In this document: one piece after another, positions 2,671 to 8,799 of the stretch
Layout: each line of letters begins with the position of its first letter
Position numbering within the stretch: position 1 is the stretch's first letter
From: a bacterium
GTDB lineage: Bacteria > Patescibacteriota > Saccharimonadia > Saccharimonadales > AWTP1-31
Assembly (NCBI GenBank): GCA_030426125.1
Contig: JAUHZB010000002.1
Location: forward strand, 67,633-131,632
DNA length: 64,000 nucleotides
Direction of reading: 5' to 3'
The notes under the pieces: generated by a model
Told to the model about the DNA's origin: nothing
Database searches by the model: none
What the model saw: only the letters and a program-made list of their open reading frames with translations
Position numbers and translations under genes: made by a program

Positions 2671-4194
2671 TTACAAGAATAATTCTATACTCTCTGAATC
2701 GACTTTGTGGTACTCATAATTAGTAGCTTTTAAAGATTCTTTTAATTCTGACCAGTCATTTCCCCTAAAGCCAATTAGTACCCGGCCTTTATCGGCACCT
2801 AGTCCGCGGTAATGGAACAAGCTGATGCTCCATTTCTGACTAATGGTGTCTAGGAACTTTAGCAACGCCCCTGGTTTCTCTGGAAAATTGACTTCCAGTA
2901 TCATCTCTTGATTTTTATCTTTACTTGGGCCACCAACCATATGTCTGATATGCTCTTTGGCAATTTCATCCAGGGTTAGATCATAGTAATTGTATCGATG
3001 CTTTGTTAGGTTAGCGATTAATTGGTTCTTGTCTTCTGCTTGATTTAAGTTAATCCCGATTAGTATAACTGCTTTGTCCTTGGTTGACTGGCTGGCTTTA
3101 TAGCGGTAGCTAAATTCACTAATTGAAAAACCATTAATTACGTCAAGACAAAGTTTTCTCAGGCTCCCGGCTTTTTCTGGTAGCTCAATAGCAAACAAAG
3201 CTTCTTTGCCGCTACCTATAAGTGTTCGCTCGGCTATGAACTGGAGCCTTTCAAAAGTCATGTTGGCTCCAGATAAAATACAGGCCACTTGCTTATTCTT
3301 CTCGGATTTAAGTTCAGAAAAGTATTTTGTGGCCCCAGCTACTGACAGAGCTCCAGCCGGCTCCACAATTGCTCGACTGTCTTCAAAGATTGCTTTAATG
3401 GCGGCACAGACTTGATCTACACTGACCGTGATTATTTCATCTACATATTGTTTGGCTAGTTGGTAAGTTAAGTCCCCAACTTGCTTAACTGCTACACCGT
3501 CAGCAAAAATACCGACATGGTCTAGCTGTAGTCTTTTATTTGTCGCAAGTGACTGTTGCATGGCATTACTGTCAGCCGGCTCAACGCCTATTACTTTTAT
3601 ATCTGGTCTCTTCTTTTTAACGTATTCTGCGACTCCAGCGATTAGTCCTCCGCCACCAACGGGGACGAAAATATAGTCAAGATCTGGGTGTTGCTCTAAG
3701 AGTTCTTTGGCTACCGTGGCTTGTCCATCAATAACCATACGGTCATCAAAGGGATGAATAAAAGTCATAGGACTGGCTTTCATTAGTTCTTGGCATTTTG
3801 CGTAGGCCTCGGAATAGTTATCGCCACTTAAGACTACTTTAGCCCCGTAGCTTTTTACAGCTTCAACTTTAATACTCGGCGTTGTTTCAGGCATCACTAT
3901 TACTGCTGGAATATCTAATTCCTTGGCACTTAAGGCCACGCCCTGAGCATGGTTGCCAGCACTGGCTGCAATTACTCCGGCCTTTTTCTGCTGATCACCC
4001 AGCGAAGCTATTTTGTTGTAGGCTCCTCTAATCTTGAAAGAGTGTATAGGCTGTAAGTCTTCACGCTTGAAATTTATTGATTGGCCAAGCTGCAAGCTTA
4101 GTTTGTTGACTTTTTGTAAGGGTGTTCTACTAACTAAATCATAAAAGCTCGGGTGAACTTTTAGAGCCGATTGTTGGGTCGATTGTTTTTTCAT
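2671..4194 (-). CDS. ilvA: threonine ammonia-lyase (threonine dehydratase), biosynthetic type with two C-terminal regulatory repeats
   Basis: 507 aa. PLP-lysine motif SFKIRGAYN, glycine loop VPVGGGGLIAG, and a long C-terminal region of two ACT-like repeats as in biosynthetic IlvA. Confidence 0.9.
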   Translation of the reverse strand: MKKQSTQQSALKVHPSFYDLVSRTPLQKVNKLSLQLGQSINFKREDLQPIHSFKIRGAYNKIASLGDQQKKAGVIAASAGNHAQGVALSAKELDIPAVIVMPETTPSIKVEAVKSYGAKVVLSGDNYSEAYAKCQELMKASPMTFIHPFDDRMVIDGQATVAKELLEQHPDLDYIFVPVGGGGLIAGVAEYVKKKRPDIKVIGVEPADSNAMQQSLATNKRLQLDHVGIFADGVAVKQVGDLTYQLAKQYVDEIITVSVDQVCAAIKAIFEDSRAIVEPAGALSVAGATKYFSELKSEKNKQVACILSGANMTFERLQFIAERTLIGSGKEALFAIELPEKAGSLRKLCLDVINGFSISEFSYRYKASQSTKDKAVILIGINLNQAEDKNQLIANLTKHRYNYYDLTLDEIAKEHIRHMVGGPSKDKNQEMILEVNFPEKPGALLKFLDTISQKWSISLFHYRGLGADKGRVLIGFRGNDWSELKESLKATNYEYHKVDSESIELFL

Positions 4195-4553
4195 AGTTTC
4201 TCAGCCACTGCCTCAATTTCCACCAATAGTTTATTATCTGCAACTCTAGGAAGTTCCTTAACACCAACGGTACTACGAGCTGGTCTACTTCCACTAGCCT
4301 CAAAAACTTCGGCGTAGACTTTATTCATAGCTTCAAAATCTTCAATATTGACTAAATAGACGGTTACTTTAATTACCTTAGATAAATCTGAGCCAGCTTG
4401 TTTAAGAACATCAGTTAGGTTTTGCAGGGCAAGTGTTGTTTGCTCGGTTATATTTTCTGGTGCTTTGCCTTCCTTAGCTCCAACTTGGCCAGCACTAAAT
4501 ACTAGATTTTTGCTATCTTGGTAACTTGCGTATGGTCCGTAAGTTTTTGGCAT
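4191..4553 (-). CDS. ridA: RidA/YjgF-family reactive enamine/imine deaminase
   Basis: ORF track gives 4191..4646. Start moved to ATG 4551-4553 (MPKTYGPY...) because GAAAGGAG lies 4 nt upstream and the longer version runs through a terminator hairpin. YjgF-family C-terminus (RPARSTVGV..LP...VEIEAVA). Its TGA stop overlaps the ilvA ATG (ATGA). Confidence 0.85.
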   Translation of the reverse strand: MPKTYGPYASYQDSKNLVFSAGQVGAKEGKAPENITEQTTLALQNLTDVLKQAGSDLSKVIKVTVYLVNIEDFEAMNKVYAEVFEASGSRPARSTVGVKELPRVADNKLLVEIEAVAEKL

Positions 4554-4603
4554 AGTTCTCCTTTCAATATTTGGTTTATTCTTGCTAGCTAAACTAGCTA
4601 AAC

Positions 4604-4632
4604 AAAAAAGACCTCTGCTTGGTAGAGAGGTC
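4604..4632 (-). terminator. attenuator terminator in the ridA-ilvA leader
   Basis: Minus strand GACCTCT-ctaccaagc-AGAGGTC followed by TTTTTT, about 50 nt upstream of the ridA Shine-Dalgarno site. Confidence 0.7.
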
Positions 4633-4656
4633 GTTTTATAAGACAATTAGCGACAT

Positions 4657-4715: not shown

Positions 4716-4743
4716 ATATTACTCTTTGTTCTGGCTCTGTCAA
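4716..4743 (-). promoter_or_regulatory. promoter driving the Ile leader peptide and ridA-ilvA
   Basis: Minus strand TTGACA (4738-4743), 16 nt, TAATAT (4716-4721), then 8 nt to the leader ATG. Confidence 0.6.
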
Positions 4744-5012
4744 GACAGTCGCCGTTGCTCAATGGTAAGTGGCTGAATATCTTGGTTGTAGTCGTCAGTT
4801 TTAAAAGGATGACCATCACGCCCACTGGCTAGGTGTTCACCAATTATTCTTAGTTCTGGTATTGTGCTGGCCAGATAATTTGAAATTTCCGGACAAACTA
4901 TTCGACCTGGATTAGATTCAGTTTGTATTGGTCTTTCCGGTACTTCGTCTAATCCAAAAGGATCGACTTCGCTAGTTCTCCAACCTAACCAACCATCAGG
5001 ATTTGCTTTCAT
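4740..5012 (-). CDS. hypothetical small protein (90 aa)
   Basis: ORF track gives 4740..5039. ATG 5010-5012 (MKANPDGWLGW...) is preferred because AAGGAG lies 9 nt upstream. No family recognised. TGA stop. Confidence 0.5.
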   Translation of the reverse strand: MKANPDGWLGWRTSEVDPFGLDEVPERPIQTESNPGRIVCPEISNYLASTIPELRIIGEHLASGRDGHPFKTDDYNQDIQPLTIEQRRLS

Positions 5013-5061
5013 CTTTCTTTGCTCCTTTATTCTTATCAATTATTATCTTATCTGAATTATT

Positions 5062-5355
5062 CTAGATGCCTTGGCTTAATGGATCTATAGTTCTAGTACT
5101 TTGGATATCACTACTCTGTGTTTGCTGTAATGCTTCATCGATTGGCGTAGCAGTCATTGAGTAGCCAACTTCACTATCATGAATTAACTCTAATACAACA
5201 GTTGGTCCAACAATTATCCCTTTATTAGCTAATGTTTGATATACCTCAGTAATAACCTCACCGCTATAATCTTGTCCATTAAAATAGACATCTTCAGCTA
5301 TCTCTTCGAAGATTATTGGGTATTTTCGTTCTAATTGTTCAATGTCTTGGCTCAT
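5062..5355 (-). CDS. hypothetical small acidic protein (97 aa)
   Basis: ORF track ORF. AAAGGAA Shine-Dalgarno site about 7 nt upstream of the ATG. First gene after the Leu/Ile/Val attenuator. No family recognised. Confidence 0.55.
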   Translation of the reverse strand: MSQDIEQLERKYPIIFEEIAEDVYFNGQDYSGEVITEVYQTLANKGIIVGPTVVLELIHDSEVGYSMTATPIDEALQQTQSSDIQSTRTIDPLSQGI

Positions 5356-5601: not shown

Positions 5602-7929
5602 CTAATTTATTTGCTGAAGTTTGAACTGGGTATATTTTTCAGCTGCAAGTCTGGTTAGTTCGGCGTCTTCGGAGGTGTTAACAAAACGCATCGCTTCAGC
5701 CAGCATTGGGTGTTGCTCGGCCAGCTTTTGATGCATCTGCATTACGAGTTTACGGTATCCGGGGTGGCCTTGAGGGCTAGTTCTTAGTTCATGCAGATGG
5801 AATGCTTCACGGGCATTGTAGGTTATCTTCCAGCGCATTTTATGCCCAAGTAAAGTAGCGTACTGTGCTTCGATCTCGTATCCAGCACTTATTAACTGGC
5901 TATGCAGGTTGAGGCTTAGGTCGAAGCAATCTTGGAATAGTTCTTCTAGTCCAGCTTCCTCTACTAGTTCTGGAACTTCATAACCATAGCGAGGGGTCAA
6001 TGCTTGCCACTCTAGATCATCAACCATTCTGTGTCGTTGTAGGTCTCTAAATATTCCGTAGTCGCACATTAGATCCCAGCTATAGTGAGCTTTTTCTAAA
6101 GCTCGACCCGGTTTGTGACGACGATTTAATCTTTCACCCATGTATTTATTAAATACTTCAGTTTTTTGCTTATAGCTCCATTTACTTACTTCCTGCTCTA
6201 TTTCAGCTAATGAAAGATGGCTGTGTTCATAGAGCATGTCCGGTAGTAGGTCTAGCTCGTTCTTTGGCCAGCAATCACTTAAGACCACTGCTTCATCCTG
6301 TTGACCATAATTTGGAGGTAGGTATTTATCGGCAACCTCTTGCATAGCCGAGTGGGTGTTGGCTCGGTAAGCAATTATGGCTCCGCCACGATCTGGTCGG
6401 TCGGCTCGCTCTAGGAAGGTTGGAATAATCTTCCGGGCTTCTTGCAGTAGTCGGTCTCCAGTCTGGACTGCTTCTGGTAGCTTATCGCTTTGCAGGTGCA
6501 TAATTAAACTTTCTAGAGCTTGACCTGAGGCGTAGATACCAACTGTAGCTTTAGTGGCTACCGGCAACACTGGCCTGATAGCATCACAGGCTTGGGCTCT
6601 AGTGGCACCTTTCCAAGCGATATCTTGCTCTTCTTTTGGGGTGCTAGAGTTACTTCGTACATAGTCGGTTAATTTTCTAACCATTTCAGAGTATTTGTCG
6701 AAAATGGTGTCCATTGTTTTAACGTAGCTTTGCTTAATGTCTTCGCTGAAGTGATCCGGCACTAGGTATTTATATTTGCCATCTTTATCTTTCTGATCAA
6801 AGTAGATATAGCGAGTCGATTGTTCTAGGTAAGCTGCTAATCTTCCCCACTCTAGTTTCTTGGTTAGTAGGTTAGATGCATTTTCAACTACCAGGTGGAT
6901 ACCAACTAATTGTTGAACGGAATCATCGCCGTAAGCAGTAATTACTCTTTGCAGTAGCTTTTCATCCTTAGAGGTTTTTCCGGCGAATTCATCAAGCAGG
7001 GTTATACGCATATCGTCACCACGACGACTTAGTCTAGCCATGGCGGCGGCTATCATGGTGGTGCTTAGATTGTCAGTGAAAGCATAGACATTGTCTTGAT
7101 TATTGGTCACAGATTTGTTTAAGAATTGCTCACCGGCAGTGGTAATAGTGTATTCACCAGTGCTGGCTTTTAGTAGTAACGGTCCTTGGTTATCTTCTGC
7201 TATTTTCGACTTTTCTTTAGTTGGTAGTATTGGCAAAACAGTCTCCCATAGTAAGTTATTAATTGTTTCAATATCTAATAATTCTCCGCCTCGTACGCAA
7301 TCGATTTGCTGGAAGTCTTCGGGGAACATGCTACATAGATCATCATATACCTGTACAGACTTAGTTAGGTGGTTAAGATCAGCTTCGTGGATGTCACGTT
7401 TTTTATCGGTGTAATCACGTTTTTCTTTTTGATCAACCAGCTTTTGGGCTGTTTCAGCCGGTACTCGAAGCACAATATTGCGATCTGGCCTAGGGATCTT
7501 TAGCATTTCAAACTCAAGGTTATCTAGCCAAATAAAGTAGCCTTTTCTTTCCTGCTGGTTATTGAACTTAGTTCCTTGATGAGCCATGTTACTGCCAGTA
7601 AAGCGATTGGCCAAAACAATATGGCCTTTATCCAGTGCGGCTCGTATTTCGGGCGCTGCTTGGTAGCGATCTAAGGCATAGAACAAAGAGCCGGTGTAGG
7701 GTCCGACCTCTTCAGCGGTGCCGTATTTAGCATTTAAATACTCCCGGACAAAGAAACTAGATTCGTTTTGGTACTGTGGGAAGTCAAAAACAGACACTGG
7801 AAAGCCATTATCCTCCAAGCGTTTTTTTAGCAGTTTAAACTGAGTGCCCTTTCCGGAACCATCAGTTCCTTCAATAACTATGAACACTCCGTTGTCTTTG
7901 TTGTCGTTGGTTTGACTATTTTGCTTCAT
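5602..7929 (-). CDS. fusion protein: dTMP kinase (N-terminal) + tandem-repeat flavin-dependent thymidylate synthase ThyX-like (C-terminal)
   Basis: 775 aa. Residues about 1-230 look like thymidylate kinase (P-loop FIVIEGTDGSGKGTQ). The rest holds two ThyX-like halves (..ARLSRRG...EQSTRY.. and ..FRDLQRHRMV...LTPRYGY..), matching ThyX RHR and S-x-RY type motifs. Confidence 0.75.
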   Translation of the reverse strand: MKQNSQTNDNKDNGVFIVIEGTDGSGKGTQFKLLKKRLEDNGFPVSVFDFPQYQNESSFFVREYLNAKYGTAEEVGPYTGSLFYALDRYQAAPEIRAALDKGHIVLANRFTGSNMAHQGTKFNNQQERKGYFIWLDNLEFEMLKIPRPDRNIVLRVPAETAQKLVDQKEKRDYTDKKRDIHEADLNHLTKSVQVYDDLCSMFPEDFQQIDCVRGGELLDIETINNLLWETVLPILPTKEKSKIAEDNQGPLLLKASTGEYTITTAGEQFLNKSVTNNQDNVYAFTDNLSTTMIAAAMARLSRRGDDMRITLLDEFAGKTSKDEKLLQRVITAYGDDSVQQLVGIHLVVENASNLLTKKLEWGRLAAYLEQSTRYIYFDQKDKDGKYKYLVPDHFSEDIKQSYVKTMDTIFDKYSEMVRKLTDYVRSNSSTPKEEQDIAWKGATRAQACDAIRPVLPVATKATVGIYASGQALESLIMHLQSDKLPEAVQTGDRLLQEARKIIPTFLERADRPDRGGAIIAYRANTHSAMQEVADKYLPPNYGQQDEAVVLSDCWPKNELDLLPDMLYEHSHLSLAEIEQEVSKWSYKQKTEVFNKYMGERLNRRHKPGRALEKAHYSWDLMCDYGIFRDLQRHRMVDDLEWQALTPRYGYEVPELVEEAGLEELFQDCFDLSLNLHSQLISAGYEIEAQYATLLGHKMRWKITYNAREAFHLHELRTSPQGHPGYRKLVMQMHQKLAEQHPMLAEAMRFVNTSEDAELTRLAAEKYTQFKLQQIN

Positions 7930-7970
7930 TGATTAACCTTTCCCCACCGGTTGTTGCTGGTGAGTTTGGA

Positions 7971-8684
7971 TTAATCACCTCGGAGTCCTTTAATTTTTGT
8001 TGGTTTGGAGCGTTTGTCTAGGTAGGCTTTAGGTAGCATTAATTCCGGCTTCCAGTTCTTTATAAGGTCTTTTAGTTCTGTACCGGATTGGTATTTTCCG
8101 CTAAATCCGCTGTCTCTTCCCTGACCATAGCTACCTTCAACTTCGCCTGTTTCATAAAAAACAGCTTGAGCGATTCGCTCACCAACTGGTAACAGCACTG
8201 TTTTGTGTTGGTTTAGGTTGAAGACTTCCAGGGTAAGTCGGTTAATATAGCCAGGGTCTATCCAGCCAGCGTCAAAGCAAACTGCGATTCCATTTCTTCC
8301 CCAACTGGAGCGTGATTTAATTTCGCAGGCTCCGGGAGGCAGAATGCCAAAGAACTCATGAGTATGAGCTAGTATTCTTTCTCCAGGACGCAAAGGAATG
8401 ACCGGATGGTCACCAGGTATCCCTTTGAGAAGTTTATGGCCATTGTTGTCGCACCACTCTTTGTGGGTGACGGCCTTGTGCGGTCCATCGAAGTATTTGT
8501 TGACCGATGCTTCATCAAAAGGGTTGTAGATGGTGTTTTCTCCCACCCTATCAGTACGGTAGTAATAGTAGCCAAGAGTGACGTCCAGGCTGGCCTGACT
8601 TACTTGTTTAGCATTAAATGGTTCACAGATAATATGGCCATCTTTTAAGGCCTGACGAATCTGGATATTGCTGTATACTCCCAA
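7971..8684 (-). CDS. dcd: dCTP deaminase family protein (possibly bifunctional dCTP deaminase/dUTPase)
   Basis: ORF track gives 7971..8714. I prefer TTG 8682-8684 because GGAGGGAG lies 6 nt upstream. Family motifs: IICEPF..., ASLDVTLG, AGWIDPGYINRLTLEVFN. Confidence 0.75.
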   Translation of the reverse strand: MGVYSNIQIRQALKDGHIICEPFNAKQVSQASLDVTLGYYYYRTDRVGENTIYNPFDEASVNKYFDGPHKAVTHKEWCDNNGHKLLKGIPGDHPVIPLRPGERILAHTHEFFGILPPGACEIKSRSSWGRNGIAVCFDAGWIDPGYINRLTLEVFNLNQHKTVLLPVGERIAQAVFYETGEVEGSYGQGRDSGFSGKYQSGTELKDLIKNWKPELMLPKAYLDKRSKPTKIKGLRGD

Positions 8685-8799
8685 AACTGACTCCCTCCGT
8701 AATCTTCCATACATTGTACGAAGTTTTAGCGTTTAGGACAAACAAAATGGCTAATATTACATCACATTTTATGCCTAAAGAATCAGTGTAGTGATCTGC

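Follow-up and report, generated by a model that had tools for sequence, protein, structure and literature searches.

In the 64-kb window analyzed here (the whole stretch at positions 67,633 to 131,632 of contig JAUHZB010000002.1, assembly GCA_030426125.1; all coordinates below are those of the window), a Saccharibacteria genome of the Patescibacteria, or Candidate Phyla Radiation (CPR), carries a two-gene thymidylate operon. The upstream gene, dcd, encodes a dCTP-deaminase-family protein, and the downstream gene encodes a single polypeptide in which a thymidylate kinase (Tmk) is joined to two tandem ThyX thymidylate synthase domains. Taken as a whole, it is probable that the operon combines a Tmk::ThyX-ThyX protein having composite active sites with a dCTP deaminase, and that the fusion was formed from adjacent genes. 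The features on which this reading is based are as follows (aa, amino acids; pLDDT, predicted local distance difference test).

7971..8684, minus strand: dcd, dCTP-deaminase-family protein of the dUTPase superfamily, 237 aa if started at TTG 8684, 247 aa if started at the in-frame ATG 8714
7225..7893, minus strand: thymidylate kinase domain of the M. tuberculosis type, residues 13-235; PF02223, 69.4 bits
7843-7869, minus strand: P-loop GTDGSGKGT within the Tmk domain
7180..7224, minus strand: inter-domain linker, residues 236-250; pLDDT below 50 at residues 240-247; 23% mean identity to homologues
6400..7179, minus strand: ThyX half A, residues 251-510; Thy1, 62.8 bits when scanned alone; WGR replaces RHR
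6808-6825, minus strand: half A substrate loop E369-Q-S371-T-R373-Y374, placed by hhalign and family conservation; R452 (R147 of T. maritima) is also kept
6295..6399, minus strand: connector between the ThyX halves, residues 511-545; mostly one long helix (515-536, AlphaFold2); 56% mean identity
5605..6294, minus strand: ThyX half B, residues 546-775; Thy1, 53.4 bits when scanned alone; hhalign probability to T. maritima ThyX, 95.5%
6028-6036, minus strand: half B R632-H633-R634, the RHR motif; E612, N705, R707 and R716 are kept, while A643, T645 and Q689 replace E86, S88 and R147

Architecture of the Fusion Protein

The open reading frame (ORF) of the fusion (5602..7929, minus strand) encodes 775 aa from an ATG start and is uninterrupted in the ORF list. 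In the full-length protein, residues 19-207 match Pfam Thymidylate_kin (E = 4e-18), and two further stretches match Thy1 (E = 2e-31). An earlier note on this DNA, made from the sequence alone, had proposed a kinase followed by two ThyX halves, and the pieces scanned singly agree with it: residues 1-238 score 69.4 bits for Thymidylate_kin (cut-off 27 bits), and residues 239-520 and 521-775 score 62.8 and 53.4 bits for Thy1 (gathering score 24.8 bits). Among NCBIfam models, dTMP kinase NF005923 scores 128 bits and thyX TIGR02170 scores 52 bits, the latter not reaching its cut-off of 87.9. The string IVIEGTDGSGKGTQ quoted in the note corresponds to residues 17-30, and the strings ARLSRRG, EQSTRY and LQRHRMV were located at residues 298-304, 369-374 and 630-636, respectively. 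The clean RHR motif is indeed confined to the second half, with WGR at the corresponding position of the first. The AlphaFold2 model of the full-length protein is confident (pLDDT 92.5), with a disordered linker.

The best 120 of 4,962 database matches are all 765-806 aa long and contain both Pfam domains. Homologues are named Candidatus Saccharibacteria or Saccharimonadales, and automatic annotation by the Joint Genome Institute (JGI) labels them "thymidylate kinase/thymidylate synthase ThyX". Mean identity of 120 homologues to the window protein is 73% in the Tmk domain, 74% in half A, 76% in half B, and 23% in the linker. One could ask whether the ORF joins separate tmk and thyX genes through an assembly error or a frameshift, the more so as two related loci, L032 and L033 (see below), do have separate tmk and tandem thyX genes in the same order. 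However, the frame is continuous, an identical protein is encoded on an independent Logan assembly contig, all 120 best homologues, originating from many projects, have the fused length and both domains, 29 further species genomes carry a fused ORF, and the linker varies in sequence yet always stays in frame. As the fusion recurs in independent assemblies, an artefact is ruled out for practical purposes. Both ways in which the earlier note thought its reading could fail, ThyX repeats undetectable by profiles and two genes hidden by a frameshift or an assembly error, were checked, and neither was found. On the other hand, the novelty it implied is lower, since the fusion is widespread and already named by the JGI annotation.

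Structure and Active-Site Residues of the Tandem ThyX

We modeled the 537-aa ThyX region separately, obtaining pLDDT 94.6 and a predicted template modeling (pTM) score of 0.90, which is why we regard the two halves as one rigid unit. As the Foldseek list of the full-length model was filled by Tmk matches, the ThyX-only model was used for comparison; it matches ThyX of M. tuberculosis and T. maritima (2af6, 3gwc, 1o26) at probability 1.00, with template modeling (TM) scores of ~0.70 over ~225-240 aligned columns. The model thus supports the intramolecular pseudo-dimer suggested in the earlier note, the two halves being predicted to fold together. In the copy of PDB that was searched, there is no tandem ThyX structure: none of the solved chains matched by Foldseek exceeds one domain. 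A phmmer search of the ThyX region against PDB sequences gave no match even at E = 10; its relation to solved ThyX is visible only by profiles and by fold comparison.

To map residues, the T. maritima ThyX sequence (checked against 1kq4/1o26) was aligned by hhalign with the family profile of each half, and the residues were counted in 101 representatives less than 50% identical to each other. The positions below are numbered as in T. maritima ThyX.

R28: half A, R in 88/101 (window R299); half B, variable (window H571)
E86: half A, E in 93/101 (window E369); half B, variable (window A643)
S88: half A, S in 88/101 (window S371); half B, T in 54 and S in 17 (window T645)
R90: half A, R in 85/101 (window R373); half B, R in 42 (window R647)
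Y91: half A, Y in 84/101 (window Y374); half B, Y in 25 (window Y648)
R147: half A, R in 87/101 (window R452); half B, Q in 73 (window Q689)
E58: half A, E in none of 101 (window I344); half B, E in 96 (window E612)
R78: half A, R in 32 and W in 35 of 101 (window W361); half B, R in 88 (window R632)
H79: half A, G in 50/101 (window G362); half B, H in 85 (window H633)
R80: half A, R in 90/101 (window R363); half B, R in 85 (window R634)
N163: half A, N in 21 and S in 59 of 101 (window S468); half B, N in 90 (window N705)
R165: half A, R in 17 and Q in 71 of 101 (window Q470); half B, R in 92 (window R707)
R174: half A, R in 47/101 (window H478); half B, R in 83 (window R716)

Judged by residue conservation, the halves have undergone complementary decay, with different catalytic and cofactor residues lost from each. 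In particular, the RHRX7S signature is absent within any one half, as half B has RHR followed by Thr and half A has WGR followed by Ser, and it is complete only across both. The substitutions of the window protein, in both halves, are fixed in 120 close homologues. The residues in question have known roles: R78 stabilizes reduced flavin (PMC11940539), R174 activates dUMP (PMC8316439), and S88, R90 and Y91 are kinetically critical (PMC8316439; PMC11940539); all five are described there as critical for function. Since the losses differ between the halves, only composite sites formed by A and B together can be complete, and we infer one composite active site per polypeptide, that is, two instead of four per pseudo-tetramer.

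We also observed two motifs, YGDDSV in half A (residues 333-338, ~6916-6933) and NRRHKPGR in half B (residues 602-609, ~6103-6126), in place of the H51-P56 loop of T. maritima ThyX, which reads HGHETP and includes the folate/flavin-contacting H53. Each is nearly invariant across the family, and they may handle NADPH, folate or the phosphates of flavin adenine dinucleotide (FAD).

The Kinase Domain

The Tmk domain passes the Pfam threshold (69.4 vs. 27 bits), while missing the NCBIfam equivalog cut-offs (128 vs. 193 and 70 vs. 83 bits). Its best PDB sequence matches are M. tuberculosis TMK (E ~1e-15), and by Foldseek it is similar to the structures of the same enzyme, 1n5k and 1g3u, with target-normalized TM of 0.83-0.86. 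Alignment with M. tuberculosis TMK places GTDGSGKGT, ALDRY/NRFTGSN and KEKRDYTDKKRD (the basic LID segment) opposite their counterparts in that enzyme. Across 120 homologues, conservation is 95% or higher for GTDGSGKGT, FPQY, ALDRY, NRFTGSN and the basic LID.

Some fused homologues elsewhere in the family (P0127, P0135, P0148) include decayed kinase P-loops, e.g., LDGPDDLYVV and EGLSNYRDQ. The N-terminus of P0127 is no longer recognized as Tmk by Pfam, and that of P0135 is degenerate as well; such proteins are possibly pseudo-kinase derivatives.

The Upstream Deaminase

The dcd ORF (7971..8714, minus strand, 247 aa) lies 41 nt upstream of the fusion ORF on the same strand. In line with the earlier note, its product belongs to the dCTP deaminase family (Pfam DCD, PF22769, 107.9 bits, cut-off 27). 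The TTG codon at 8684 is located ~7 nt after a GGAGG Shine-Dalgarno sequence and yields 237 aa, the length of most dcd homologues; for these two reasons it, rather than the ATG at 8714, is probably the start of dcd, which agrees with the end coordinate of 8684 given in the note.

The closest solved relatives are 4xjc (54.9 bits), the M. tuberculosis enzyme 2qxx (45.8 bits) and the M. jannaschii enzyme 1ogh (33.7 bits), while the monofunctional E. coli Dcd scores 19.4 bits. The first of these is presumably the bifunctional enzyme of B. halodurans. The catalytic Ser, Arg and Glu are aligned, with SRSSWGR and LTLEV in the window protein, GRSSLGR and ITLEL in 2qxx, 1ogh and 4xjc, and GRSSLARLG and IVLEF in E. 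coli Dcd, where we take these residues to be S111, R115 and E138. Moreover, DAGWIDPGY of the window protein is similar to the TAGF/WID motif of bifunctional enzymes and not to TAHRIDPGW of E. coli (the E. coli sequence was verified). These similarities incline us, by a modest preference, to the bifunctional, dUMP-forming type. The dual Dcd:dut activity of the M. tuberculosis enzyme is documented (PMC5519681).

A defence-system role of the deaminase was considered and rejected: PADLOC yielded no match for the deaminase and only weak kinase-fold matches for the fusion.

Distribution and Origin of the Fusion

A profile-free search with the ThyX region retrieved 3,472 clusters, formed at 50% identity, with E ≤ 1e-3; for 721 of them, E was ≤ 1e-30. 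The matches are of two kinds, unfused (~525-560 aa) and fused (~640-800 aa). A scan of one genome per species gave matches in at least 595 genomes, of which the best 80 loci were analyzed by ORF calling and phmmer. Among these 80, 33 loci are Saccharibacteria-type, nearly all fused, and dcd is directly upstream on the same strand in 26 of the 30 assessable Saccharibacteria loci, often overlapping the start of the fusion gene. Surveyed in this way, the fusion is centered on Saccharibacteria.

Two loci have a different gene order. In L032 (3148-6608), dcd, tmk and tandem thyX are three separate genes, and in L033 (3989-6575), tmk and tandem thyX are separate and adjacent; the stops and frame changes are real, as verified, and the tmk ORFs were confirmed by Pfam. 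In a rough neighbor-joining tree, both have a basal position within the Saccharibacteria clade. This is likely to be the pre-fusion state, although secondary fission is possible. It also bears out the Rosetta-stone-type link between consecutive steps that the earlier note had seen in the fusion, as both loci keep tmk and tandem thyX adjacent and in the same order. The ThyX of L032 carries a 94-aa N-terminal extension which is not Tmk.

About 44 of the 80 loci belong to Acidimicrobiia or Actinomycetota and encode an unfused tandem ThyX (~42% identity) with no dcd or tmk nearby. In four Actinomycetota loci (L042, L046, L052, L069), the tandem-ThyX ORF extends 300-460 aa upstream of the ThyX match. 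The extensions have no match at E ≤ 1e-5 to the Tmk domain of the window, the only Tmk type compared, and could be either an artefact of ORF calling at high GC content or another N-terminal fusion partner.

Searching with a profile built from distant unfused members identified at least 7,914 further proteins of ~530-545 aa annotated as "FAD-dependent thymidylate synthase", and unfused tandem ThyX is present in Acidimicrobiia, Methylomirabilota, Binatia, Vicinamibacterales and others. As these proteins are so numerous and span several phyla and classes, tandem ThyX is, by similarity, a large and widespread class, and the kinase fusion is its Saccharibacteria-centered derivative.

The fused kinases of Saccharibacteria fall into two Tmk subfamilies, the M. 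tuberculosis type (NF005923), found in the window, and the classical type (TIGR00041, 106 bits) with the motifs GPEGVGKTTQ, REPDSQ and DRNYLTT. The observation of two types concerns the N-terminal ~240 aa at loci L004, L005, L009, L011, L013, L014, L016, L019, L023, L027, L028, L031 and L034. The adjoining ThyX regions are ~65-75% identical to that of the window, yet the two kinase types match each other only at E ~1e-6, and the classical type is concentrated in one subclade of the rough neighbor-joining tree. This suggests either module replacement in situ or a second, independent fusion.

Genomic Context

The dcd and fusion genes are directly downstream of secE, nusG, rplK and rplA. A candidate promoter lies between rplA and dcd, which are 85-115 nt apart:

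8713..8741, minus strand: sigma-70-like promoter match TTGTCC-17 nt-TACAAT, a consensus match only

A scan of the region found 6 promoter-like sites vs. 8.0 expected by chance, which makes the match weak evidence for a promoter; it overlaps the in-frame ATG at 8714.

On the 3' side of the fusion there are two small ORFs without a family match, followed by a RidA-family gene and then a threonine dehydratase gene. The small ORFs (within 4740-5355, minus strand, 99 and 97 aa) follow the fusion directly and match nothing in Pfam; at this site the independent assembly has genes of 97 and 90 aa, the latter replacing the 99-aa ORF. The RidA-family gene (4191-4646) overlaps the start of the threonine dehydratase by 4 nt (2671-4646 for the pair). 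The threonine dehydratase (2671-4194) is of the biosynthetic type with two C-terminal regulatory domains, the two genes making an IlvA-RidA pair in a reduced genome. No second tmk, dcd/dut-like, thyA or thyX ORF was found within the 64-kb window.

Proposed Pathway and Alternative Explanations

In the scheme that we favor, the first gene would encode a dUTPase-superfamily dCTP deaminase, probably bifunctional and forming dUMP, and the second an M. tuberculosis-type dTMP kinase connected by a flexible linker to ThyX-ThyX in the same polypeptide. By analogy with homotetrameric ThyX, two chains may pair into a pseudo-tetramer. From half B would come E58, the RHR motif for flavin and nucleotide, N163 and R165 for FAD binding, and R174 for the activation of dUMP; from half A would come the E86-S88-R90-Y91 substrate loop and R147. 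Together, the products of the operon could carry dCTP to dUMP, dTMP and dTDP, in the sense of a pathway and not of physical channeling. The fusion would have arisen within Saccharibacteria from adjacent tmk and tandem-thyX genes.

Several considerations weigh against this scheme. The activities of the fusion family are predicted from sequences and models, and the window covers only 64 kb of the genome, so that a separate dut, thyA or second tmk is possible elsewhere. The hhalign probability of half A to T. maritima ThyX is only 29%, despite which its motif blocks align clearly and Pfam detects it. Among the 101 representatives of the wider family, Arg is still present in half A at R174 in 47 and at R78 in 32, and the notion of two dead sites may fail in some lineages. 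The dcd product falls just below the TIGR02274 cut-off (90.4 vs. 92.8 bits). Finally, the E. coli and M. tuberculosis enzymes, Dcd and Dcd:dut, match each other at 128 bits, and as they are this close, similarity is a weak predictor of bifunctionality. In a rival reading, the deaminase is monofunctional, making dUTP from dCTP as in E. coli, with a separate dUTPase elsewhere and an operon that is not the full route from dCTP to dTDP. We regard this as a realistic alternative, if not the one we would choose: TIGR02274 takes in both kinds of enzyme, bifunctionality is not a clean property of a clade, and the examined part of the genome is limited, but the deaminase is closer to 4xjc, 2qxx and 1ogh than to the E. 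coli enzyme, carries AGW at the site of the E. coli AHR, and is accompanied by no dUTPase-like ORF within the window.

The number of ThyX sites could differ from one per chain if both sites were active, or if half A were a pure scaffold with the sites formed by half B alone. The subunit supplying each residue is predicted from the residue pattern, and some members retain the half-A Arg at R78 and R174. Against this, neither half of the window protein has the full set by itself: R78-H79, N163, R165 and R174 are replaced by W361-G362, S468, Q470 and H478 in half A, E86, S88 and R147 are replaced by A643, T645 and Q689 in half B, and these substitutions are fixed in the close homologues. Moreover, the residues that half A does retain show conservation of 85% or more, for which there would be no need in a passive scaffold. 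A different count is therefore unlikely. Still less likely is a fused Tmk domain serving as a nucleotide-sensing or regulatory module, with dTDP made by another tmk. The decayed P-loops of P0127 and P0135 would fit such a role, and the lack of another tmk in the window has the limited weight of 64 kb; but the kinase motifs show at least 95% conservation across the window protein and the 120 homologues closest to it, the predicted fold is that of M. tuberculosis TMK (TM 0.83-0.86), and the unfused genes next to tandem thyX in L032 and L033 are tmk genes of the ordinary kind, belonging to the same subtype. A more elaborate version of the composite-site scheme can be imagined, in which the degenerate pseudo-sites (YGDDSV, NRRHKPGR) are now regulatory or handle NADPH/folate, the tether hands dTMP to the kinase, the whole is a channeled, feedback-controlled, Saccharibacteria-specific dTDP machine, and the kinase was swapped in situ between the two Tmk subfamilies; we consider it improbable.

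Comparison with Known Systems

Much of this is already known. The three enzymes and the pathway are textbook material, annotations of tandem ThyX are widespread, and JGI labels the fusion; as the domains, the pathway and the fusion label are in databases, current understanding is not overturned. What this analysis adds is documentation of the gene order before fusion, together with the conserved linkage to dcd and the complementary pattern of half-sites. In the open-access literature, we found no paper on a Tmk-ThyX fusion, on Saccharibacteria ThyX, or on tandem or "ThyX domain" proteins. Saccharibacteria are epibionts with reduced genomes and rely on salvage for most nucleotides, and a conserved two-gene module leading from dCTP to dTDP bears on how they secure thymidine nucleotides. 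Tmk::ThyX-ThyX is also a clean Rosetta-stone case, because the unfused ancestral order survives in basal relatives. ThyX is an antibacterial target absent from humans, and the tandem form, with catalytic residues divided between the halves, is a natural "heterodimer", ready-made for assigning active-site residues to subunits.

Homotetrameric ThyX (T. maritima TM0449, M. tuberculosis Rv2754c; PF02511, TIGR02170) has the same fold (TM ~0.70 to 2af6 and 1o26), with Thy1 detected in both halves of the tandem protein, and R78, H79, R80, E86, S88, R90, Y91, R147, N163, R165 and R174 are all found in one tandem chain. Unlike the homotetramer, the tandem protein has two domains per chain, with RHRX7S split between RHR of half B and the Ser loop of half A, and is predicted to have two sites per (pseudo)tetramer rather than four; it is also too diverged from solved ThyX for phmmer and stays below TIGR02170 (52 vs. 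87.9 bits). The unfused tandem ThyX (~535 aa) has the same two-domain unit, 40-55% identical over 537 aa, and the same invariant residues, but lacks the N-terminal kinase and has no dcd or tmk nearby. The chlamydial ThyX (CT632, ~529 aa), reportedly shown to be active by Griffin et al. in 2005, may belong to this tandem class.

For the kinase, the closest match in both sequence and structure is the M. tuberculosis-type thymidylate kinase (NF005923/PF02223), with the P-loop, FPxY, DR(Y) and N..(Y/H) motifs in common. Here, however, the kinase forms the N-terminal part of a protein of 775 aa, scores below the NF005923 equivalog cut-off (128 vs. 193 bits), and has His at the position of Y103 of M. 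tuberculosis TMK. The deaminase belongs to the same family as the bifunctional dCTP deaminase:dUTPases (1ogh, 2qxx) and shares their catalytic Ser/Arg/Glu and AG(W/F)ID, but is 40-60 residues longer, having an insertion after approximately residue 60 and a longer C-terminal tail. As a fusion of consecutive steps around thymidylate synthesis, Tmk::ThyX-ThyX resembles the dihydrofolate reductase-thymidylate synthase (DHFR-TS) of protozoa and plants, a classic Rosetta-stone case; the enzymes there (ThyA, DHFR) are unrelated, and the partner of the synthase in Saccharibacteria is the next kinase step instead of folate recycling.

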